DNA of 64,000 nt, from positions 288,001 through 352,000 of the forward strand of contig CM000429.1 in assembly GCA_000165345.1 (NCBI GenBank), given 5' to 3'. The position numbers and the translations under genes are program-made. Within the stretch, counting starts at the first letter, position 1; each line of letters starts with the position of its first letter. The notes below the pieces were generated by a model that worked only from the letters and a program-made list of their open reading frames with translations, was not told the origin of the DNA and made no database searches. Below are positions 44,016 to 59,600 of the stretch, piece after piece.

Positions 44016-44276
44016 CATGAAGTCACTAAAAGTGGCAAGTATTAATCAAAGGAAAACTTGATCATTGAATTAACAAAGAAGACGAATGTTGTACAATTGA
44101 GATAAAATAACGGATGGGATTTTGGGGGTTTCCTGTACCCTTTTGGATTCTGTTCACTGCACGGCGATACATGTGTGTATTTCAAATTTTGAGTTTACGA
44201 GCAAAATATAGCTGGCTAGATCATTGATTAAGTATCACTAAAACTGAGTGAGGTCCATAAAAGTGTCCATATTACA

Positions 44277-45668
44277 ATGTTAAATAAAGATACATCTAAC
44301 TCTCTCAAAATACCGGAATACTGCTTTAGGCGTCGCAACTTTAAAGGAGAGGGGGAGCTTGAAAATTCAAAATTACATGCATTCACTGATGAATGTTGGG
44401 ACTCGCCGAGAATAACTCCAAACTTTGGTGATGAAAATGATAGCCTATTACCAAATCGGACACTGAGTAGGGTACCTAGAATTTATTCTTTGGCTGAAGG
44501 TGATTTTGAGGATTTTGAGAATAAACCTGAAGCTCACAAACCTCTTTTTGACGCCGCCAGAGAGTCATCAAGCATTGATTCAGAGATCACCATTCATGCA
44601 GAAGAGTACACTAAACCCGCTAATGATGGCTATGATTATGATGATGATTATTATGATGATGACGATGAAGCGCTAACTCCGCTGGCATCTTCTGCTGCTA
44701 GATATAGACTTTATGATATTGATTGGGATGAAAAGTCAAGGCTGAAAAAAGACGAGCAAATCAGTAATATCCATGAAATTCAAGATGATATAAAACTTAA
44801 AGACTCTGATTTTTGCCTTCTAGATTCCACAGGAATAAAAGGTCCTAAGGAATTCGAAACTAAGCAAGGTAAAGTTATTATTTCGGAAGATGGAGACTTC
44901 AGCTTTGAGTTTTCTGACAGAAGGAAACTTTTCACAGTCAAAGGAGGAGGATGTTTCGTTTTAGTCAGTGATGTTATTGATAAGAAAAGAAGGGTTTCTG
45001 ATGATTCATCATTTGAGTCTGCTGATGTAACTAACCAAGAATACAATGAAAGTAAATACCACGTTAGTGAGCTTCCGCAACAACATTTAAAGAGATATAT
45101 CTATGGAACTCATCTTTGTGAAACTATCAAATCGTTCATTCCAAAGGTAAAGCTTAAAGTTCCCCAAGAAGGGACTTATTTTTTGATGTCTAATCATTTA
45201 ACTTTTGCTGATTTTCGAGCTGAATTTATCTCAAACCTATCAGGCCAGGTTCTCTCTGCTCATCTTACTAATTATCAATCAACCGTTATATTTACCTCAA
45301 AAAGTGGTAAGAGAGTAGAATTTGATAAACTAATTCTTGACAAAATGGGAGTTTTTGAAGAGGTTGACCAGGCCTTTGAAGAAATTAAGTACAATGATTA
45401 CTTAATTAAGAAATCTCATGAAGTTTCAGAATGCGGAATTGAATGGTCTACAATTATCAAAATCTGGAGGTTGATACTCGATAGGCTTGTTGATTGCAAA
45501 AATTTGGAGCTAAAGGGGCTTAAAGCCTACTCTGAATCTCTTATTAGTTCTGATGTAGATTTAACCCTTAGTGAGAGCTTTTCCATTGGAGGAAATTGTA
45601 TGATGGACTGGCACATTAAAAAAAGTGTCTTTGAGAATATATTCCCAATTCAAGTTGAGAAGTTCTGA
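44277..45668 (+). CDS. hypothetical acidic protein (463 aa)
   Basis: ATG ORF with an acidic D/Y stretch (DGYDYDDDYYDDDDE). No recognisable domain. Confidence 0.5.
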   Translation: MLNKDTSNSLKIPEYCFRRRNFKGEGELENSKLHAFTDECWDSPRITPNFGDENDSLLPNRTLSRVPRIYSLAEGDFEDFENKPEAHKPLFDAARESSSIDSEITIHAEEYTKPANDGYDYDDDYYDDDDEALTPLASSAARYRLYDIDWDEKSRLKKDEQISNIHEIQDDIKLKDSDFCLLDSTGIKGPKEFETKQGKVIISEDGDFSFEFSDRRKLFTVKGGGCFVLVSDVIDKKRRVSDDSSFESADVTNQEYNESKYHVSELPQQHLKRYIYGTHLCETIKSFIPKVKLKVPQEGTYFLMSNHLTFADFRAEFISNLSGQVLSAHLTNYQSTVIFTSKSGKRVEFDKLILDKMGVFEEVDQAFEEIKYNDYLIKKSHEVSECGIEWSTIIKIWRLILDRLVDCKNLELKGLKAYSESLISSDVDLTLSESFSIGGNCMMDWHIKKSVFENIFPIQVEKF

Positions 45669-45699
45669 CTTAAAATTTTTAATCAAATTTAGATAGTAA

Positions 45700-48588
45700 T
45701 TACTTAGAAGTAAATCCCTTTAACGATTTTAATGAGCTCGCAATATCATTGTATTTGAATGAATGTTTGTTTAGACCATTATTAACCATTCCAAAGCGAA
45801 TAAGTGCCAATATATCGTGGTACGGGATATTTTTACAACGTTCGCTTGCGACATTGTGAGAGTTATCATTTAAATTAATATTCTTGTAAAAATTTGTCAA
45901 GTTACTTTGGTTAAATGACTTGAGATGTTTTTGAACTTTCTTCTCGGAAAAGTTTAACTTTGATTCAATCGATGCCATGTATTCCAAAATTATAATAAAC
46001 ATTGAAAATGATTCTTTGTATTGAGAATTATATATTTCTTTTTTCTCATAAAACTCTAATACTTTGTTAAAGTATGTATCTGCCTTTTCAATTTCTTTGG
46101 AAAAAAGCTTAAACGCGAAACAGCTTGTGTTCCCTGATTCATTTTCCTCACCTTCCTCCTCTTCTTCAGAATCTAGCTGATTTTCAACTTGAACAATGTT
46201 GTAATGGAAGATACTTTTGATAGTTAATATGAAGTACAGGGCTGAAACGGAATTATAAAGAAAAATTTCTAAGTCAATGCAAGGAATCGTTGGAATTGAC
46301 TCCTTGCTCCCAAGCTCAAAGTTAGATATTAACAATGATACATTCTTGAATATTAAATCAATACTTTTTTTCATTTTGGTCAAAAATTTATATGGGAGAA
46401 ACATAAAGATATTCTTAATGTGGCTGAAGTTTACGAAATGGCTACATCTTATTTTCTTATTCTCTGAAAACTCTTCAACAATATTTGATAAAACCTGGTT
46501 AAACTCCTTGATTTTGCTTTGAAAATAACTATGTACAAGATCCTCTTGGATTTCGCTTAAAGCATTAATAATATTTGATGTACAAATAAAGCAATATATC
46601 TGCTTGTTACTCAAAACTGATCCTCTAAGAAAGTTGATAAGCAACTCACTTCTTTCATCTGAAGAAGCCTCCCCATTATCATTACTCTTCAAATAACCTG
46701 CTTCCGTATTATTGCTAATACTCAAACAATACTGAGTCATAATGAAAAATAGGTATTTAACAGCGTCAGCAATCCAACCATCGTTTTTAAATAGTCCCTC
46801 CTCTATTATTCCCTTAATATTACTTGTTATACAATAAGCAGTATAATATAAAATATAATTTTCTTCATATTTTGAACACCAAATGAGAAATGACGAAAGG
46901 AACTTTCCCGCCTTACATGCATTTACATGTAAATTGCCTTTGGAATTGTCAGATTTTACAGATTCTTGATTAGCAAGAAAGTGTATATCTAATAGCAATA
47001 AGTAAGTAAAACTGGTAATGTGAATAATTGACACAAGCTCCATGTTTTGACTTAAATATGTAGAAAGATGTTCCTCCGATTGTTTAAATGATCTGTCCAT
47101 TATATTTGCCGTAGTCTGAAAAAGTTCAAGAATTTCACTAATTAATATGAGCTGCATATTTCTATCTGCATGCATTGTACAACATGTTTCGCATAAAACT
47201 GGGAAAAGAAGAGAGAAATATGAAAAATCGTAAACTTCACTTTGAAGATGTAGAATTTTGTGAATATGGTTAATAATCTTGAATGTACTTTCCTTTGAAG
47301 TTGAAAATAAAAGTGGAAAGGTGACGAATAGTTTCTGAAGAATCTCAACAGAATACCCTTCATTGGAGATCATCAATTTTGTGTAGCAACAATCTTTGTC
47401 TTTGAAGATATTGTTTTCTCTATTTTTAATATATTCTGATGTAATTTTATTGTTATTCAATTTACTTCCAAAAGCTCGTTTGCTAGATGACTCAACCCCT
47501 AGAATTCGAATTAAAATCACGTATTCAATTATATCAGTGAGAACTTCCTTTTCAATTAACTTTTCCAATATCCTCTTTGAGCTTAATATTAATTTTAAAG
47601 TCAAATGCAAAAACTTGATAGTCAATCCTATACGTATATACTGCTCCTCTTTAATCACTATTTGATCATTACCTGAGTTATTATCTAAATAAAAGTTATA
47701 AAGTAAATTTTCTATTAAAAATAGTTGTTTTGCAACCAAGATTTCTGTTAATACTATTGAATAATCATTTTCTTGCAGAATAAACTCTTCAACAATAGGA
47801 AGTACTAAATTAATATTTAAGTTTAAGTTCTCAATGCAATATACCTTTGCTGATTTAGAATATATCTCAATACTAGATTCAACAAGTTCTTTATTTATCT
47901 CTTCTTGAGTGTTCTTGTCTAGTCTATCTACCAACAATTTAGTTGATTTAAAGAATTCTAAAGTCATTTTAACCATTTCATCCGTACTTTCCTGCAAACT
48001 CAAAAATATGGATGTGGTGAGCTCAATTGATCTTGAAATTACAGCACTGAATTCTTGAATATATTTGCCTTCGTGCATTACTTCTTTATCTTGTTCAGTA
48101 TTGTGAATAGTTTTCTTAACGTTCAATAATGCATCAATAAAAGAATACATTTGCCTAATATAATCCCCAAAATCTTCTTCAAATGGATGTGACAGCTTTA
48201 CTACATCAGAGATCAAAAGTATTAGCAATCTTAGAAGCAGATATAAGCAATTTAAATTACTTAGAACAAATTTTATTACACCATTATCTTTTATTGAAAA
48301 TAATCTGGAAATTTCTTTTATAGAAATTTCCTGGTATTTATCCACTATTCTCTTTTTGTTATTGGTCCTCAAAATATCAAATCCATCCTCATGTTCATAT
48401 CTCGTATCATTATTTTCATCATGCTGAGAATTAATGCTAATAAATATCTCATAATCTATAAGTAATTTTTTCTCCAATAGCTTAATGTTATGTTTATTCA
48501 CATTCAAGTACCTATTCACATATGACAAGAGTTCAGGTAACTCGTAGTCATAATTATTTGCAAATATTAAATCTACGATTTCTTCCAT
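45700..48588 (-). CDS. large hypothetical protein (962 aa), helical-repeat-like
   Basis: Uninterrupted 962-codon ORF with ATG at 48588. Composition is consistent with an all-alpha protein; family not identified. Confidence 0.55.
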   Translation of the reverse strand: MEEIVDLIFANNYDYELPELLSYVNRYLNVNKHNIKLLEKKLLIDYEIFISINSQHDENNDTRYEHEDGFDILRTNNKKRIVDKYQEISIKEISRLFSIKDNGVIKFVLSNLNCLYLLLRLLILLISDVVKLSHPFEEDFGDYIRQMYSFIDALLNVKKTIHNTEQDKEVMHEGKYIQEFSAVISRSIELTTSIFLSLQESTDEMVKMTLEFFKSTKLLVDRLDKNTQEEINKELVESSIEIYSKSAKVYCIENLNLNINLVLPIVEEFILQENDYSIVLTEILVAKQLFLIENLLYNFYLDNNSGNDQIVIKEEQYIRIGLTIKFLHLTLKLILSSKRILEKLIEKEVLTDIIEYVILIRILGVESSSKRAFGSKLNNNKITSEYIKNRENNIFKDKDCCYTKLMISNEGYSVEILQKLFVTFPLLFSTSKESTFKIINHIHKILHLQSEVYDFSYFSLLFPVLCETCCTMHADRNMQLILISEILELFQTTANIMDRSFKQSEEHLSTYLSQNMELVSIIHITSFTYLLLLDIHFLANQESVKSDNSKGNLHVNACKAGKFLSSFLIWCSKYEENYILYYTAYCITSNIKGIIEEGLFKNDGWIADAVKYLFFIMTQYCLSISNNTEAGYLKSNDNGEASSDERSELLINFLRGSVLSNKQIYCFICTSNIINALSEIQEDLVHSYFQSKIKEFNQVLSNIVEEFSENKKIRCSHFVNFSHIKNIFMFLPYKFLTKMKKSIDLIFKNVSLLISNFELGSKESIPTIPCIDLEIFLYNSVSALYFILTIKSIFHYNIVQVENQLDSEEEEEGEENESGNTSCFAFKLFSKEIEKADTYFNKVLEFYEKKEIYNSQYKESFSMFIIILEYMASIESKLNFSEKKVQKHLKSFNQSNLTNFYKNINLNDNSHNVASERCKNIPYHDILALIRFGMVNNGLNKHSFKYNDIASSLKSLKGFTSK

Positions 48589-48988
48589 TTTGTGTGAATA
48601 TACAAAAAATCATTTTCAAACCTGCCACGATATACCCGATTACGAACATGCTATAAATTGGTATATCCCCCCCGCATGAAATTTGCTGGAAAGAATAACT
48701 CAAAATGTGTTGCTAATTTATTTCAAAACCTAAATAAAGGTAAATCTTATCTTGATATAGCCCTTAGTTTCATTAAGTATTTCTTTTGGCAGAATTAACA
48801 TCAGTATTTCTAAAAAAAAATGCTCTAAATTCATTAGAATCATGTTGGCGGCAACTGCCAGAATTTACAAATTTCAATTATTACACTTTAGGAAATTAAA
48901 GCAGAAATTAAACTAAGCCCTGAAAAAAAAACTGAGACCATAGTTCATAATACTTCATTTATGAGCCTTTATTCTGAATTTTTTCGGA

Positions 48989-49732
48989 ATGCCAGCTAAA
49001 GAAGATTTTAAACCATTCGAAATCAACAACTTTTTGGCTGAGTTCAGGTCTCAAGTATCTAAAAGAAAGAAGCGATTTCAAGAACAACCAAGCTCAAAGC
49101 ATTTAGATATTTTTGCAGATGGAAGAGCTAAGCTAATGGTCAAAAAAACTAATGATAATAATTATCAATCAGATATTAAAAGGCTCATTGAATTTGCCAT
49201 TGATAGGCCATCAGTACAAGGTGAGAACTCTCCTTTAAGTCCATTCAATACTGATTTGCTTTTCTTCAATGAAGATACAACCTCTTCTTCAGTTTATTTT
49301 GAGTGGTCATGCACGGATTGTCCATTATATATGCCAAAGATGTGTAATTGTGGAACAAAAGGTGGTGAAAATCTATATTCTATGGTCTGTAGTAATGAGA
49401 GCTGTGAAGGCCTGCTAAAATTACCTTATAGTCTTATACATATACCCTTGAATCGTAAAATTAATTCAGTCCAATCATTCGTTTCTGAAAATATGGGAAT
49501 CCCAAGCTCTATACTTATTTATTATGGGAAACTAAAAAATTCACTGCTTTTAGTGTTATTTGACAAAGAACAAGAACGAAGCCTTGTAAGAGCTCTTTAT
49601 AATGCATCTGAATCTATTGGTTGTATTGCTTTATATGATATTTTTCCAGATAATAACAAAAGTAGAAGTTCAAGAAGGCCTTATACGACTAAGCTTAAAT
49701 ATACTGGTCAAATCCGTAATTTATACAAGTAA
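48989..49732 (+). CDS. hypothetical Cys-containing protein (247 aa)
   Basis: ATG ORF with a Cys cluster (CTDCPLYMPKMCNCGTKGGENLYSMVCSNESCEG). It is divergent from the 962-aa gene and its 3' end lies next to the 3' end of Mre11. Confidence 0.45.
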   Translation: MPAKEDFKPFEINNFLAEFRSQVSKRKKRFQEQPSSKHLDIFADGRAKLMVKKTNDNNYQSDIKRLIEFAIDRPSVQGENSPLSPFNTDLLFFNEDTTSSSVYFEWSCTDCPLYMPKMCNCGTKGGENLYSMVCSNESCEGLLKLPYSLIHIPLNRKINSVQSFVSENMGIPSSILIYYGKLKNSLLLVLFDKEQERSLVRALYNASESIGCIALYDIFPDNNKSRSSRRPYTTKLKYTGQIRNLYK

Positions 49733-50228
49733 TCATTCACTTCAAGAACTAATAATATAAAATTAACGAGCCCTAATTTTAAACCATGTCAATATTCAAA
49801 TTTTAAATCATAACTCAATTATTCTTAAATAACATGGATATAATGATTTGAATCAATTTTGAAGTTTGAAACCGAATCTGCGAGAGAAAAAAAAAATCAC
49901 TTCATATCAAGTTAATAATTGTGTCGCATATTCCTAATAACAAATTCTTTGTTCACTATTTATACTTTGAAAGCTATATTTTTATTTAATTAAGTTTCCT
50001 TATTGATAAGTCATTTACTCATCTTATTAAAATTATATCAATTTTTTTTCATAAAATAATTCTTCAAAGAAAAATATTTATCTATTCGTTAATTTTGACT
50101 TTTATTTTTGTTTTTGTATTAGATTAATAATGCGCTGATATTGTGCAGAAATTTCATGTGTTCAAAATATTCATTATATCAACTAGTTGAAAGGAACAAA
50201 CTAAAGAATTAAATACATTATTCTCAGA

Positions 50229-52032
50229 TTAATTCCACTCGCTATCTGAGATTTCTCCCATTTTCTTATTCTTCACAGACTTCCTCTGGTTCGTAATATT
50301 TTTATTCTCGCGTGATCTCTTGCTTTGTTTAATATGATCAGAAGAATCGGAAATCTCCCCCTCACTGAATGAGTCAGAGAAACCTTCAGACATTATTGAG
50401 TCAATTTGACTAATGCCAAACTCATCTTTGCAAATTCTATTATTTTCCTTAATTTTTTGCAGAACATCGCTTATTTCCAGATTTTTATTGTTTTTGTAAA
50501 ATGAATTCGATTTTGAGATAGCATTGAGAATGCAATTTTCAATGGAGTGGTTATCAAACTTGTTGACAAACAAGTCTATTGCCTTATTCAAATCATTGAT
50601 ATTAATCACTTCTAATCCGTTTAATTTTTCGGTATAATGAATTGTTAAGCTTTCAATCATGTTGCTATCATCAGAACTAAATGAAATTGGGTTAATTCTC
50701 GAATTAAGACCAATTGGATCTTCTTGATCATTGTATTTATTTACATTGTTTCTACTACGTCTACTAAACATCAAAATCTCATGTGGATTTGCTGTTTTAC
50801 TAACAAACTGAAACCCAAACCTTTTCGAATTGATCAGCTGTGAGTCACATTCATATTCAACTCTAAGCCTAATAATTGGTAGATCCATTGACTTATTCTT
50901 TAGAATTTCTTGTATTTCAGGATTCTGAGGCAAATTTAACTTATTTTTTTCCAACTGTACAATTTTTGCCTGTTCAATTAGTTGATGAACTTTTTCAATT
51001 AAATGTTGTTCAACCTGAGCTAAATCTTTGTCTAAAACAATATTATCATGGATAAAAACCCTTGGTGAGAGTAAAGGTATGGGAGTTGTTTTAAATGTAT
51101 TATTTTTTATTTCCAATAGTGTAACATGCTTTTGTAAACTTTCAGATGCAATAAGAGATGTAGCAATTGAAGATCCTGGCTGAAGTACAAAGAAGTTTTT
51201 ATTTGCAACCTCTACAGGGTTAACAATGCATTCATGTTCGTGACCCCAAATTATTAAATCAAGAAAATCTGGTAAAAATGATTCTGGAATAGAATCTTTT
51301 GATAGGGTTCCCCCAAAATTGCCTTTTTTTCTATTTTGATGGAAAAGCAAAATAGAAAACCATTCAGAGTCACCATTAGTATTTTCAGGAATCAAAAATT
51401 TAACTTTATTCTTTTCAAATGACCTATGAAGTCTTTCATCTCTAATATTTCCAATTCCATATATTGCCAACCTTGTACTTCCTTTCTCAAGCAAAACTGG
51501 AAAAACTTCTATGTTATCTACATTGTTATTCTTTCCTATATAGTTGATAAACCTCGCTGACTCAAGTATATCTAGCGGAGAAAGAAGCCCTTCTTCTCCA
51601 GGATCGTCATGATTTCCATGTATTCCGAAGAATGGAATGGATACGTTAGCATCACCAACTTCCCAATTGTACCCATTAACATTTGATGAATCTTGTCGAT
51701 TTAGAGCTCTGAATTTAATTTGTTTATTCCCCATACAGTACTCACGAATAATGTTCATTACCTTATACATTATATATTTAGAAGGTTTAGCAACGTCAAA
51801 TAAGTCCCCACTATGTAGAATAAGGTCTACATCAAGTTTTTTACCAATAATAAAAATTTCCTCCAACGTAATTAATGAGTCATTACTCCTTATTCTATTA
51901 AATTAATTTACTAAACTATCGAATTGATCACAAGTCAGTTCAAACATACCTATCTCTTTCTTTATATCCCGTATGTGTGTCTGTACATACAAGAATTTTA
52001 AATGTATTATCATCGTCCCCAGTTACTTCCAT
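50229..52032 (-). CDS. MRE11: Mre11 double-strand-break-repair nuclease, two exons
   Basis: Exon 1 is 51950-52032 (MEVTGDDDNTFKILVCTDTHTGYKERD, phosphoesterase motif I). The intron is 51895-51949 (GTATGT…TTAATAG, 55 nt). Exon 2 is 50229-51894. The junction …KERDR|IRSNDSLITLEEIFIIGKKLDVDLILHSGDLFDVAKPS matches Mre11 (…[43 protein letters not shown]) in register. Downstream motifs GIHGNHDDP (III) and GHEHE (IV) are present. The track ORF begins at a TTG (51866) inside exon 2. Confidence 0.8.
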
Positions 52033-52100
52033 TGTTATTCATTCATTTATTGTATTAAAACGCTTCAAGTCAATATGCAGTTAAAAATAGCCCCCAGCAT

Positions 52101-52112
52101 TTTGGGCGCCAA
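52101..52112. promoter_or_regulatory. E2F-type motif TTTGGGCGCCAA, about 70 nt upstream of Mre11 exon 1 and shared with the divergent 52292 gene
   Basis: Seen directly in the sequence. Confidence 0.55.
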
Positions 52113-52291
52113 CTTACTTGTTAATGACCTTTGCATATGTTTTTTCACAAGGCAAAAAATATTATCAATATCTAAAAATAAATAAAACTTGTTACAGCAA
52201 CTGTAATGTTTCTTCCTGTAACATCAAGACAGTTGTTTTTAAGAAGTTATTTGTTTTGGTAGGATAAGAATATAGGTTGAGAATTTCGAAG

Positions 52292-53640
52292 ATGTTAATT
52301 AATAGATGGGTAATATTTGCTTACTTATTTCAATTACTTTGGAGGTATATTATAAGTGAAGGAACTCAAATCAATGCAGCAACCGAAGAGAATGATGCTT
52401 ATAGGTATAATATCATAGCTGATGATCTTTTGAATATGGATTTTCCGGCGTATAAATTTAGAGATCTAAAAAGAAAGTCTAGAGTAATAATAGAGGCAAA
52501 TAATAGAATGTTGCATGTATTAGAGGATTTGTTAATAATTTCTGACGAAATCTTAGAAGGTTTTTCTGATCCTTCAAAAGAGCCATATTTTTTGGAGGAA
52601 TATAAATCTATCTCACTGGTAAGTCTTATTTTGAATGTAATTTAGTAATAGTAAATCAAAACCCTTAGGTTCCAAGTTCTTTGCTTAAGTTTTTAGTAGA
52701 TCACGTTGAAAAAATGTTAGAAAGCTTGCCTTCCTCAAAGCCAATAAGTTATTTTCTGTACAATGATGCAACTGAAGTTTATAGAAAGGCGCATATTGAA
52801 TTGCTAAAGGATTACAGAGTAGTAACAATAAGAGTTGCATGCAGGCTTTTAATCATCTCCGTATTGCTTTCCTCATTGGAGAACCTAGTTAATAAAGAGC
52901 ATTCAAAGAGTCTTAGCATTTCCTATCCATTTTTGGATGATATTATTATTCGCCCCAAATCCACAGCAAGGTCAAACGTTACAAAAGTTTTAAACAGAAT
53001 TTTGAACTCCATAAGAAATTATGGAAGGAGAATCAAAATAGGAATAAAGAAAAAGGTGGGTATGAGTGATGAATTTGAAATAATCGGTGCGGATTCTCCA
53101 GAAATAAATGAAAAGGAATTTCTTTCCGCTATTTATAATCACAGGCAAGGTTCGGTTAGATCTATATTTGGAAAAGATGAAGCAATCTTTGAAAACAAGC
53201 AAGAAGTTTTTCAGGTAATAAACAATTTTATAGGAAAACAAGAAAGAGACTCAGGAATATTACTACAAATCCTTGAAACAGTGATTAGAAAGGAGCTTGG
53301 AATCGAGAGTTCTCAAGAACTCCAATGGAACTCCGAAGCCAAAAGGAAACTTACAAATGTCTGTAGAGACAGCCATGTCCTGGAAATTTTACCAAATAGA
53401 ATAAAATTTAAAACATGTAGGCAGTTATTTAACAAGGCTGGTGAGATTTTGACGGGGTCTCACTTTAAGAATAGTGAAAAAGAAAGTCGTATGGCTGGAA
53501 GAGCAAATGTATTAAAAAAAATCAGAAGAATTTCTTCGATTAAGTTTATTCAGGTAAGTATCAAATTAAGCCAAACTGATATAAACAGATCTAATTCAGC
53601 TAAAATATATTCTCTTTTAGTCAATATTAATATACTATAA
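52292..53640 (+). CDS. hypothetical protein, at least two exons (possibly a third ending at 53746)
   Basis: Track ORFs 52277..52645 and 52681..53640 join in frame across a 50-nt GTAAGT…CCCTTAG intron (52619-52668): …EEYKSISL|VPSSLLKFLVDHVEKMLESL…. The first ATG is 52292 (MLINRWVIFAYLFQLLW…, hydrophobic N-terminus). A further GTAAGT donor at 53554 with acceptor TTTTAG at 53620 would replace the last 29 codons with a 41-codon exon ending at 53746. That third intron is speculative. Confidence 0.5.
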
Positions 53641-53766
53641 TGTGAATGACAAATTATTGAAAGATCAATTGGCCAAAGTAAGTAAGGGGACATTGAATAG
53701 AAGTCATAGAGCGAGATATTCAGAAATATTAAATGCTGAAGACTGAGAGTATGAGTACATATTAAG

Positions 53767-56124
53767 CTAACCCAAAATCATTCTTGTGCTGCTATCTAAC
53801 TTATTCATGGTGGAAAGCTGATCATTGCAAAGCTTTGGAATATCTCTAACCCAATTTAAATGACGATTCCATTCTTTAACCAGTGCATCCAATTTGGCAT
53901 TTGACTTATTAAAAATCTTTTCTTGGCTAAGAACTACCTCATTATTCTCTTTTATCAATGAGTGGACACGCTTTAATAAATAAGGTGCTTGAGAAATTAC
54001 CTCCTTACAACTTTCAAATTGCTCAGAAGTTTCTTTAACTACTGAACATTTCATGATAAGATTTAGAGGTTTAATAAACTTTTCTAATTTGGCAGTAGTT
54101 TTAGAAGAATTCACTTGAGGAGCGCTATTCTTCTTTATTAGCTCTATTTGTTTTTCTATATTAATCATCTTATTATTTGCATGCACGCTGGATTGTTTGA
54201 GGTTATTTAAATGGTCTTCAATATTTATAAGAGGGGATAAAACTTCTTTACGAAGTTTCCTCTTTGTAGTTGGAAGTCTTGCCTTAATATTCTTTAACCC
54301 ACTTCCCTGTGTTCTTTCATCGACAGTCTGTCTAAGAGAAGCTATAATACTTATGACCTTGTTAATTGCTTCTTCGCTTGACTCTACCAGTTCATTCCTA
54401 AGGTCTGGACTTACGTCAATAGACTTGAAAATATTGTTTGTCTGATTTCCTTTGTCAGAGCCTTCCTTTTTCAATCTAGATAAGTTCTTCTTAAGTGACA
54501 TTGTTATGTCCAAAGAAAGTAAATAAGAATAGGAGTATAATGAGCTTGGCACAGATTCATTCTTGGCTGAGGACAAAATGATTTCGGAGTAGACTTTATT
54601 GGTGAATTGAAGTTTTTCTAGAGAGTTTAGCATAATACTCGTGGAATTATTAATATACATATATACATGATCAAGTTCATTAGCTAATAAATTAATGTGT
54701 TGAATAAGCTTTTGAATCTCTTTGGAAGAAAGCTTATCTGAAAATTTTTCCTGTAAAATATCAATTTTTTTAAAATCTGGAAAAAAAGGAAGACCCTTTG
54801 CGTTTCTATTTTCTAATAAAACCCCTTGACTAGATTTCGTTTTAGAAAACTGGTAAGGTAATATTTTGGTTGGATTAAGTTTTGTCTTACTTAAAGAGCT
54901 TTTATCAAAATCTCTGTCATTTAAAATATTATCTAATTGAGATAAACTTTCCAGTTCTTTCTTATTCTTCTCAAAGTTATAAGAACATAAATCCACCAAA
55001 TTCTTGTCATATGTTATATTTATATATGAGACATGTGCTAAAGTCTCTCTTAATATTTCAAAACTTTGTTCATATAAAACAAGTACATTAGAAACCGACT
55101 TCATCATATAAATAAGTTTCTTTTCCAGAGGGACCAAAATGTGTTTATACTTTAAACAGTTTTTTAGCTGCTTCAATTGTTTGTTTGCTCTATTTAACTC
55201 CATGAGAACTATTTTCGAAAGAGGGGATGAAACAAAAATTGTGTTTTCAGGTAAATATTCTTGTAGTTCAATAATGCTACCGATAATATTTTGTTCAATA
55301 CTTTTCATTGTATCTTGATCAATAAATCCGCTTAAAGTAAGATAAGGTTCTAGTTCTTTACTTCTAGACAGATTTTTCTTATGTTCATCCAAAAGTAGAA
55401 TAAGATTGAAGACTTTACTACATTTATTCACTCGGTTAATTGCTTGGCTAAGGTCGTTATGAATAGATTTTGCAGCTACTTGAAAAATATCGCCAATGTC
55501 TTTATTATGCTGTTTTAAAACTCCTAATAAATGGCTAGAAAGTTTTGTTGAAATGAAATGTTCGATATCCTGTTGTAAGCCAACACATAAGTCTTTTTTT
55601 CGTATAAATGAATCTTTGTTGTCAAACATATTCTCTTGTTGGTTTTGAAAGTTTTCAAGTAACCGAATACAAAAATCGATCTCAAACTTCTTCGTATTGA
55701 TATAATCCAAAAAATAAATAAACTCCTTCAAGGTGCGTACTTGATCTGACTCTTGAAGAATATTAAAGTTTTTGGTCCAAAGATGAATTGAGTCTCTAAA
55801 AACTGACATTTCACTGCTAAAAGTCTTAGAATCAACAATATTTTCCTTTAGAAGTCTCAACAATGAACTCTCGCAGACTAATTTAACACTTTCCTCCTTA
55901 GACAAAATTCTCTTTTGTGTAGCAACTGTGTTCTCTAATTTGCTATTCAAATTAATTAATTCAACGTTACTTGTAAACTTTGACTTTTCCACAAAAAAAT
56001 CAAGTAACTGTTGATACCTGTCATTGTTTTTAGTTTTCTTTGAGTTCCAAAGCTTGATTTGAGCCTCGGAAGCAATAATAATTGACAGAAGCAAAAATAT
56101 AAATAGAATAACCCATGAATTCAT
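53767..56124 (-). CDS. secreted coiled-coil hypothetical protein (785 aa) with signal peptide
   Basis: ATG at 56124. MNSWVILFIFLLLSIIIASEAQIKL is a signal peptide. The remainder is K/E/L/N-rich and helical or coiled-coil in character. No homolog recognised. Confidence 0.65.
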   Translation of the reverse strand: MNSWVILFIFLLLSIIIASEAQIKLWNSKKTKNNDRYQQLLDFFVEKSKFTSNVELINLNSKLENTVATQKRILSKEESVKLVCESSLLRLLKENIVDSKTFSSEMSVFRDSIHLWTKNFNILQESDQVRTLKEFIYFLDYINTKKFEIDFCIRLLENFQNQQENMFDNKDSFIRKKDLCVGLQQDIEHFISTKLSSHLLGVLKQHNKDIGDIFQVAAKSIHNDLSQAINRVNKCSKVFNLILLLDEHKKNLSRSKELEPYLTLSGFIDQDTMKSIEQNIIGSIIELQEYLPENTIFVSSPLSKIVLMELNRANKQLKQLKNCLKYKHILVPLEKKLIYMMKSVSNVLVLYEQSFEILRETLAHVSYINITYDKNLVDLCSYNFEKNKKELESLSQLDNILNDRDFDKSSLSKTKLNPTKILPYQFSKTKSSQGVLLENRNAKGLPFFPDFKKIDILQEKFSDKLSSKEIQKLIQHINLLANELDHVYMYINNSTSIMLNSLEKLQFTNKVYSEIILSSAKNESVPSSLYSYSYLLSLDITMSLKKNLSRLKKEGSDKGNQTNNIFKSIDVSPDLRNELVESSEEAINKVISIIASLRQTVDERTQGSGLKNIKARLPTTKRKLRKEVLSPLINIEDHLNNLKQSSVHANNKMINIEKQIELIKKNSAPQVNSSKTTAKLEKFIKPLNLIMKCSVVKETSEQFESCKEVISQAPYLLKRVHSLIKENNEVVLSQEKIFNKSNAKLDALVKEWNRHLNWVRDIPKLCNDQLSTMNKLDSSTRMILG

Positions 56125-56323
56125 TTTGACTTGATAAAATCGATGCTTGAAATTATAGTTTTAAAAAGAGCAATTCTTGCAAAAAAAAAATTATACCAAC
56201 CTGAAACTATATTCTCCTTATTACCATAATATTGTCGTAGCTAACGCTGCAACTCTTTATTATAATTTACCTTTATCTTTTATAAAGAATCAACAAACTC
56301 CTATTCTACCTAAAGGGATATAA

Positions 56324-56347
56324 GGGCGCGCCTTTGGCGGGCAAAAA
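56324..56347. promoter_or_regulatory. tandem E2F-like sites GGGCGCGCC and TTTGGCGGGCAAAAA in the divergent spacer between the 785-aa secreted-protein gene and the 56678 gene
   Basis: Two adjacent GC-rich E2F-like cores. Confidence 0.5.
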
Positions 56348-56677
56348 TCGTTTTTTTTGCATTGCAAGAAAAAAAATGAAGAAATGCAACCTATGGAAAA
56401 AATAAGGATGAAACATTGAATAAGCTTAGAAACAAGCTATTTTCTCAACAAATAATTACAGACCTCTGAGTTATTTGTATGAGTTTTCTTCTCATTTTAT
56501 TCTTCAAAAGCAAATCTCAATTTATTTAAAAATATGCAAATGGCGGAATTTGTATATCCCCACAATCACATGTGTAGTAATTTATAATACTAAAAATTAA
56601 TAAAAATATTACTCTAGTGGGGAGAAAATAGTATATGATAAACATGATATTCTGATTTCAATTTATATTGATGTATC

Positions 56678-59600
56678 ATGTATGATAGACCACATCTAAA
56701 TGGGGCATTCAGAAGAGGCTCCAGCCTTGACTCCTTAATGGACTCGAACAAAAGAAATCAAGTTAGGAGGTTTAGTCAAAGTGGCATGGCCTCAACTACT
56801 CGAGAAGAACGGCCCATAATCAGCTCTATAGAACGTGAAGCAAAAACTCAAGAGAGATTGAGAAGATTGTCAATGAGCATTAAGTCAGGAGGTAAGAGTA
56901 TTAAGTGTAACAATGAATTTCCTCAAAATAAGATTCAAATAGAACAAATACTTCTATATATAAATACAGGTGCAAAATATAACAGCGACATTTACGAAAA
57001 GAAAGAAGATTATGAACGAATGGTATATGAAATATTTTCTGTAGGAGGGTATTGTTGTGATTTAATGGTGAGTTCGTTTAAGAATATTGTGAGTAATCCC
57101 AAAGTCAATGGTGTGAATATGACCAGAATGGACCGTCTATTGAATTTCCTGTCATTTGTTCAGGATTTATTCAAGAACTACTGCAGTCCAGAAATTGTTA
57201 GCATGGCCCCAAAACAAAGAGTTCAAAGTTGGAAAGTCTTAAATCCATCCCAGGATTATCGTTCTAGAAGTTTATCAAACATATATAATACAGATAGTAA
57301 TAACCTAAACGAAAGTGAGAGATTTCGTAAAATTGAAAGGAAGCTTTTAGAATCTGTTTCTAAGAAAGCTGTTCAAAATAATAATTTGAAAAAAGACCTT
57401 TTAGAAAAATATAAAATCGAAAAGGATAACAAAAATTTGATTAGTACAAAAAACTCCCAAAGCCCTTATGATCTTATTAGACGACGGTATCTTGGAGAAT
57501 TGAAGAAAACTCTTGTTAATGATAGCCAAATACTAAATCGAGAATTGTCCAGACCAAAGTCAAGCGAAGGAGGCGTTAAGAAGATTTTCGAGTCCTTGCG
57601 TTATTCTAGAAAAAAAATTGGCGAAGATGAAAATAGGGCAAGATCATTATCAAATATACCAATCTCTAGAGACTTTGCTTCTGAGATCAAAATAGTCAGA
57701 AGTAGATCTGAGAATTCTTTGAAATTGGAAGAGGCTAAGTTAAATATCAAGAAATTAGAAGACCAACGAATTCAAGGACTACAGAGACTAATAGACAAAC
57801 TTAAAGAAGTTAAGCTGGGTTCAAGTAGTCGCGAATCTAAAGCCATAGAAAGTCCAGAAAACAACTCAATATCCTTGCATGATAGTAAGAAATTAACTAG
57901 AAAAATAAGTGAAGTTAGTTCCACGCCTATCTCTAGCTCTTTGATTTACGAGAAATTAATTCAGGCTCAAATAGAGCATTCAAATACTTTGAATAAGAAT
58001 ATTGGGCCAGAAGAGTGTTTATCTGAGGAAGCCAGTGATGAAAATAACTCAAAGGAAAGTACTCACAAAATTAAACGACATTGGGAATTGGACACACCAT
58101 TTATTCACTATAGAAATATTGGATTCAATAAGGATTTGAAGCAAGATCATATAAAGGAAATTTACGACAAACCTGTTGTTGGTTATCAGAGCAATGAAGT
58201 TGAACAGGCATTCATACCATGTATACCCCCAGTAAGATACGAATATTCTGAAATTAAAGAACCGAATAGTGGTGAAAATCAACATACCACTACCAAGTCT
58301 ATTTTGGAACTAAATTCTCAAATTGATCAGGAGCCTATTGAAAAACAAATAAAGTTAGAAGGCTCAGTTGATGAAATAGTTCAATTTGACCATTTAGTAC
58401 CACCAGAAGCTGTTGCTTCAGATTCAAAAGAAGTTATAGAGCCAGAAATTGTTTCCGAAAGTGATTTGAATAATTTAGATTTGCAAATTAAAATAATGGA
58501 TCCGATGCTCGTTCATGAATTAGAGAACGATTACATTGATGAGGCTCAAAAAACGCCTTCAAACAAAGATGTGCGTAATTCTCCAAGTGAAGATGCTACT
58601 GAATGTTTATCTGTTGTAATTACAGATCCTCAGAAGGCTCTTGATGACAAAATTACTTTAAATGTAGTTTCTATCGAAGATGAGCAGACTTCCAAACGAA
58701 AGCATGGACTGGAGGATTCTCCTCTGGAACCTATTAAAATCCTTAAGGACGGTGAGGTTACAGTCGAAGAGATCAGCAAAATAACTGACAAGCTGGAAGA
58801 TATAACTATGGTGAATGAAAGTTTGATTAAGAGAATCGAAAACTTGCCGATTGAAAACATTGATCTTTCAAATGAAAATGGACTATCGATTTTGAACTCT
58901 TGTGCTAGCAACTCAGAAAGGAACTCTCCCGAAAATAAGAAGGATATCAATATGGATAGACTACAAAATATTGAATATTTCACCTCGGGAGATGAAGAAC
59001 TTAGAAGTAAAATTGAAGAGTACAATTATTGGTTTGAAAATGCAAGCTCTGGGAATTATTATGAGTTGAATTTGGACGGATTGAATTTAGAGGAGTTTTA
59101 CTACAAAAATATCGAGTCAATTCCCAGGTGTTATGATGAGTTAATTGACATGTCAGAAAGCTCCATAATTAATTTATGCAATATTATCTTTAATAGGTTG
59201 CCCGAGCTCATTTTAGAGCAAATGGAGAGAAGTACCGAAAATAATATGGGGGAAAGCAAAGCTAGCATAGGTATTGAAGCTTTAGCTTATTACGAGCTAA
59301 GCGAAGAGGACCTTCTTTTCTTTATTCACGAAAAGGTGATGAAAGATCCAAGCTATCTAGGGTTCAAGTCATCTATTCGAGGGGAAATCTATCCTCCCGA
59401 TGATAACTTTATCCTGCTAATTATTGACCTTATAAGAGAGTTGGTACAAGAATGGAGAGATGATACATCTAATTCCTGGAGAACGCCAATCACAGATGAA
59501 TTGATTTCCAGGAAAGTGACAGATATTATATGTAATTCATATGAGCCTTATTTGTCAGAAGTAGGTTCTGAAGAATGGGTATTAAAAAAGGTGTTTCATG

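Follow-up and report, generated by a model that had tools for sequence, protein, structure and literature searches.

The window, a 64,000-nucleotide stretch of Cryptosporidium parvum chromosome 1, contains the Mre11 locus on its minus strand, and the gene very probably consists of two exons separated by a 55-nt intron, with a 582-aa product. The locus encodes Mre11, which acts as the nuclease in the Mre11-Rad50 complex for repair of double-strand breaks. The spliceosome would remove a canonical U2-type GT-AG intron (51949-51895), short and AT-rich, from the pre-mRNA, and the 83-nt exon 1 would be joined in phase 2 to the long open reading frame (ORF) across a split Arg codon (AG/A). Exon 1 would supply the N-terminal beta-strand and motif I, and with them a complete phosphoesterase active site. 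Actual splicing at the TAG at 51895 is what we infer from the sequence. The exact two-exon model is already annotated, and the finding is a correct rediscovery. In window coordinates, the features of the locus are:

52039..52041, minus strand: in-frame TGA, three codons 5' of the Mre11 ATG at 52032.
51950..52032, minus strand: Mre11 exon 1, which opens with the ATG and has 83 nt (27 full codons and 2 further bases); it encodes MEVTGDDDNTFKILVCTDTHTGYKERD.
51973..51981, minus strand: codons of phosphoesterase motif I, D18-T19-H20 (the metal-binding D-x-H), aligned to human MRE11 D20-I21-H22.
51895..51949, minus strand: Mre11 intron, 55 nt, GT-AG, phase 2, GTATGT … TTAATAG, 25% GC.
51889..51891, minus strand: alternative in-frame acceptor AAG, 6 nt 3' of the TAG, giving a 61-nt intron and 580 aa with the junction KERD-R-SNDS.
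50229..51894, minus strand: Mre11 exon 2, 1666 nt with the stop, encoding motifs II-V, the DNA-binding/capping domain and the C-terminal tail.

The Mre11 reading frame is closed to further 5' extension by the in-frame TGA at 52041-52039. An earlier note on this DNA had described an 83-nt exon at 52032-51950 that encodes MEVTGDDDNTFKILVCTDTHTGYKERD, a GTATGT donor and a 55-nt intron ending in TTAATAG, and all of these were read in the window on the minus strand as described; the exon opens with an ATG, and the donor starts at 51949. The last two bases of exon 1, after MEVTGDDDNTFKILVCTDTHTGYKERD, are 'ag', and ATGGAAGTAACTGGGGACGATG is a stretch inside this exon. Left unspliced, the frame of exon 1 meets a stop three codons further on (after …DRYV); the GT donor and the AG acceptor restore the frame and remove this in-frame stop. 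The spliced CDS (1749 nt) was open throughout and encoded 582 aa, its junction with the TAG acceptor reading KERD-R-IRSNDSL across the split Arg codon, and the product aligned to human MRE11 across the junction with no gap. The start of exon 2 quoted there, RSNDSLITLEEIF, did align with human MRE11, but its start point was slightly imprecise, since the quoted stretch opens two residues past the split codon. The observation of the exon and intron was confirmed, and the interpretation of the locus as Mre11 was supported.

YTNAY-like strings preceded the Mre11 acceptors (TTAAT about 10-15 nt 5' of the TAG), but they are not specific at 25% GC; likewise, the Mre11 intron of C. serpentis holds a branch-like TACTAAA string that is unspecific in such AT-rich sequence. 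A second GTATGT occurs within exon 1 (51985-51990, minus strand; codons Val15-Cys16), 36 nt 5' of the real donor, and is a potential decoy donor. As the donor of the Mre11 intron this exon-internal GTATGT (51990-51985) was rejected, because its use would delete motif I.

The spliced product matched the Pfam Metallophos profile (PF00149) over profile positions 1-191 with 64.3 bits (cut-off 21.5). The mechanical ORF at the locus (50229-51866, 545 aa, beginning at TTG) had been said to lack motif I, and on its own it indeed matched this profile only from position 25 (25-191, 45.6 bits). Mre11_DNA_bind (PF04152) was matched over profile positions 1-178 with 104.9 bits in both products (cut-off 25). 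Against solved structures, the spliced protein gave E values of about 1e-98 with human MRE11 and with Mre11 of Chaetomium, and no gap interrupted the stretch that starts at residue 6 and takes in motif I, the exon junction and motif II. Human D20 and H22 were matched by D18 and H20, in agreement with the proposal that exon 1 encodes the Mre11 N-terminus with its D-x-H, and D58, N122/H123, H213 and H246/H248 of motifs II-V aligned with human D60, N128/H129, H217 and H245/H247.

From established knowledge of the human structure, we take the aligned human MRE11 residues to be metal ligands, and the seven Mn2+ ligands would presumably be D18 and H20, encoded by exon 1, and D58, N122, H213, H246 and H248, encoded by exon 2. 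With two of the seven putative ligands coming from exon 1 and five from exon 2, only splicing can yield an active nuclease; we infer from the aligned residues that the 582-aa protein would be catalytically active. Cryptosporidium Mre11 shares all five phosphoesterase motifs and the capping domain with human MRE11 (PDB 3T1I, 8BAH, 9ULO) and with that of Chaetomium thermophilum (4YKE, 7ZR1). Cryptosporidium Mre11 differs in its total length (582 aa vs 708 in human), in a loop after residue 96 that is 4 residues shorter than in the human and Chaetomium structures, and in a C-terminal tail that is divergent and rich in Ser, Asp and Lys. With regard to C-terminal Rad50-binding helices, the alignment with human MRE11 reached query residue 504 (human 495), and similarity was low past about residue 410.

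An N-terminal profile was made from 102 non-Cryptosporidium Mre11 homologues taken from the homology search, in which Cryptosporidium Mre11 proteins appeared at 98-52% identity. The 582-aa model with the 55-nt intron scored 195.4 bits against this profile, the 580-aa model with the 61-nt intron 184.6 bits, the 579-aa model with the 64-nt intron 181.2 bits, the 545-aa ORF alone 142.5 bits and the legacy 513-aa model 99.4 bits; the contribution of exon 1 was about 53 bits. Other intron lengths were rejected: the 64-nt intron is in frame (KERD-S-NDS) and had the lowest score of the intron models, the 34-nt intron keeps the frame but runs into a stop, and the 39-nt intron is out of frame.

Motif I was also sought with a sub-profile in 137 six-frame pieces of 51800-53800. 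The match was minus-strand 51943-52038 (44.7 bits, E 3.8e-14), far beyond chance, and no other motif-I piece was present among the 137 (next best 1.6 bits). A different upstream exon with motif I, which the earlier note had named as the competitor of its model, was accordingly absent across 51800-53800, where exon 1 was the sole profile match. The upstream neighbour has its CDS start at 52292, on the opposite strand, and there is therefore no space for another Mre11 exon. The D and the H of motif I were invariant (102/102 homologues), and the junction columns at I29 and R30 held I/V/L in 102/102 and R in 101/102 homologues. The spacing between motifs I and II was 39 residues in 96/96 homologues with a match to both motifs; it was the same in the 582-aa model, according to the gapless human/Chaetomium alignment.

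The orthologous Mre11 loci of seven other Cryptosporidium species were compared with that of C. parvum. A phase-2 intron was present at one shared site in all 8 species, with a length of 48 nt in C. felis, 49 nt in C. meleagridis, 50 nt in C. canis, 53 nt in C. ubiquitum, 55 nt in C. parvum, 78 nt in both C. bovis and C. ryanae, and 97 nt in C. serpentis. For the annotated two-exon orthologues, one single GT-AG solution reproduced each deposited protein, in phase 2 directly after the KERD codons. Donors were GTATGT (GTACGT in C. felis), and acceptors were TAG in every species. The lengths of the orthologous introns covered all three classes modulo 3, and read-through met a stop in every species. 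Intron GC was 18-29% across species, vs 31-41% in exon 1. The last 65 nt of exon 1 were 72-95% identical to C. parvum in the 7 orthologues, and 47 of the 71 exon 1 substitutions fell at codon position 3; the identity of the intron to C. parvum was 47-80% and was below that of both flanking exons in each pair. Judged from these alignments, the pattern of substitution and conservation is the one expected where a genuine intron follows a coding exon.

No intron was present at the position of the Cryptosporidium Mre11 intron in Vitrella, Klebsormidium or Nematostella (three loci examined), where motif I through the E-K-D-x-I/V-R stretch lies within one exon. By comparison with these three, the intron does not appear to be obviously an ancient shared one.

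Deposited models differed in their acceptor. The TAG was used, giving 582 aa, in the IOWA-ATCC, C. tyzzeri and C. hominis 30976 models, and in the equivalent 583-aa C. meleagridis models; the AAG was used, giving 580 aa, in KAL5370382.1 (C. parvum), WKS76042.1 (Cryptosporidium sp. 43IA8), and CUV04085.1 and KAL3129844.1 (C. hominis). The 580-aa models, among them CUV04085.1 of C. hominis UdeA01 and KAL5370382.1 of C. parvum, shared exon 1 and the donor with the 582-aa model, but their acceptor was 6 nt further 3' and Ile29-Arg30 were missing. An in-frame AG occurred at +6 in 8/8 Cryptosporidium species (in C. parvum, TAG and AAG within 51889-51897), since an AGR codon specifies the Arg in the I/V-R pair; the conservation of the +6 AG therefore does not separate the 582-aa from the 580-aa model.

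Use of both acceptors in tandem, with a major 582-aa and a minor 580-aa isoform, is improbable. The two AGs share the reading frame at a distance of 6 nt and are kept across the genus, and independent annotation efforts differ on the acceptor; against this, only three putative alternatively spliced C. parvum genes were given by Baptista et al. (PMC8744675), with identifiers all far from CPATCC_000276, and a 580-aa isoform without the near-invariant residues is more likely to be splicing noise than a functional isoform.

Somewhat less probable again is a gene with the same exon 1 and donor and the AAG as its acceptor (61-nt intron, 51949-51889; 580 aa, KERD-R-SNDS). This is the junction of four deposited models, it is in frame, and its AG at +6 is found in all eight species; the junction of CUV04085.1 may reflect transcript evidence, C. 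hominis being the species annotated in PMC4637869, which re-annotated C. parvum with RNA-seq. The AAG acceptor, however, deletes two residues from a segment that had no length variation among the homologues examined, with loss of the I/V/L (102/102) and Arg (101/102) columns, and lowers the profile score by 10.8 bits (184.6 vs 195.4); the curated models of IOWA-ATCC, C. tyzzeri and C. hominis 30976 choose the TAG instead. AAG is a weak 3' splice acceptor, and the upstream TAG, which follows a T-rich tract, is presumably the first AG past the likely branch region. On the homologue residues and the profile score, the TAG at 51895 was concluded to be the probable functional acceptor, and an error of 2 residues at the junction is probable in the 580-aa variants. 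Among JGI metagenome contigs there were 0 matches to the joined exons of either isoform, an uninformative result.

A stronger form of dual acceptor use was rated very unlikely. In it, both conserved acceptors (51895 and 51889) would be used to produce a second Mre11 isoform without the Ile-Arg pair after motif I, with altered or no nuclease activity and a regulatory role. If this were true, the isoform without Ile-Arg could act regulatorily, for example in one life-cycle stage or in meiosis.

The reading with no intron, that is, a single ORF with an internal start (the 545-aa mechanical ORF, or the 513 aa of XP_001388154.1 and XP_667579.1), is still the one annotated in legacy RefSeq and UniProt records, but it can be dismissed as already contradicted by the comparative sequence data: its products lack motif I (and, at 513 aa, motif II as well) and would thus have no way of binding the catalytic metals, the reading frame of exon 1 is kept over eight species with a substitution bias to codon position 3, the profile score falls from 195.4 bits to 142.5 for the 545-aa and to 99.4 for the 513-aa product, and the TTG that opens the 545-aa ORF does not serve as a start codon in eukaryotes.

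The two-exon, 582-aa model was found by exact-sequence look-up to be identical in its product to C. parvum QOY43485.1 (CPATCC_000276) and WRK30535.1. Window positions 44229-58032 (13.8 kb) were 100% identical to CP044422.1 (IOWA-ATCC chromosome 1), and QOY43485.1 (CP044422.1, 536578-538381) had the same protein and the same 1804-nt span as window 52032-50229, with no difference. Novelty is nil because the exact gene model is already annotated, and there is no new biology because the correct 582-aa model is already in the IOWA-ATCC annotation. According to its authors, the introns of that annotation are 100% supported by RNA-seq, and the N-termini of >500 genes were repaired in it (PMC8744675). 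An earlier re-annotation had put introns in 10.8% of the genes, up from 4.3% (PMC4637869); Mre11 or its locus tag had 0 occurrences in the supplements of that paper.

The legacy records XP_001388154.1 (UniProt A3FQD2, C. parvum Iowa II) and XP_667579.1 (C. hominis TU502) correspond to the same locus and have the same sequence from residue 70 on. Both are of 513 aa, start at M70 (MYKVMNII…; window 50229-51824), and are without exon 1, the intron and motifs I and II. Users of these RefSeq and UniProt records for C. parvum and C. hominis work with an Mre11 that lacks two catalytic motifs, and the remaining value of the finding is an annotation caveat on the legacy 513-aa and the 580-aa records.

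The same truncation problem affects the Mre11 models of C. ryanae and of the chipmunk genotype. The deposited C. ryanae protein (553 aa, 'hypothetical protein FG386_001226', VHLK02000066.1) starts at an intronic ATG at position 1501 of the fetched locus. In the coordinates of that locus, VHLK02000066.1 contains an unannotated exon 1, MENDEGNTFRILVCTDTHAGYKERD (1354-1430), and a 78-nt intron, GTATGT…TATAG (1431-1508). The Mre11 model of Cryptosporidium sp. chipmunk genotype I (507 aa) was also truncated at its N-terminus.

No tRNA genes (ARAGORN) and no Rfam families at gathering score were present in the whole 64-kb window, and an RNA gene within the Mre11 intron or its flanks was rejected on this basis. 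The divergent upstream neighbour of Mre11 (window 52292-53746, plus strand) is a 445-aa protein in CP044422.1, with no Pfam match on record, and it appeared in the mechanical ORF list as separate ORFs of 122 aa and 319 aa. The best GT-AG solution for 445 aa had introns at 52619-52668 (50 nt) and 53554-53620 (67 nt), both GTAAGT…TAG. The ATG of this neighbour is only 259 nt from the ATG of Mre11, a distance that suggests a bidirectional promoter region shared by the two genes.
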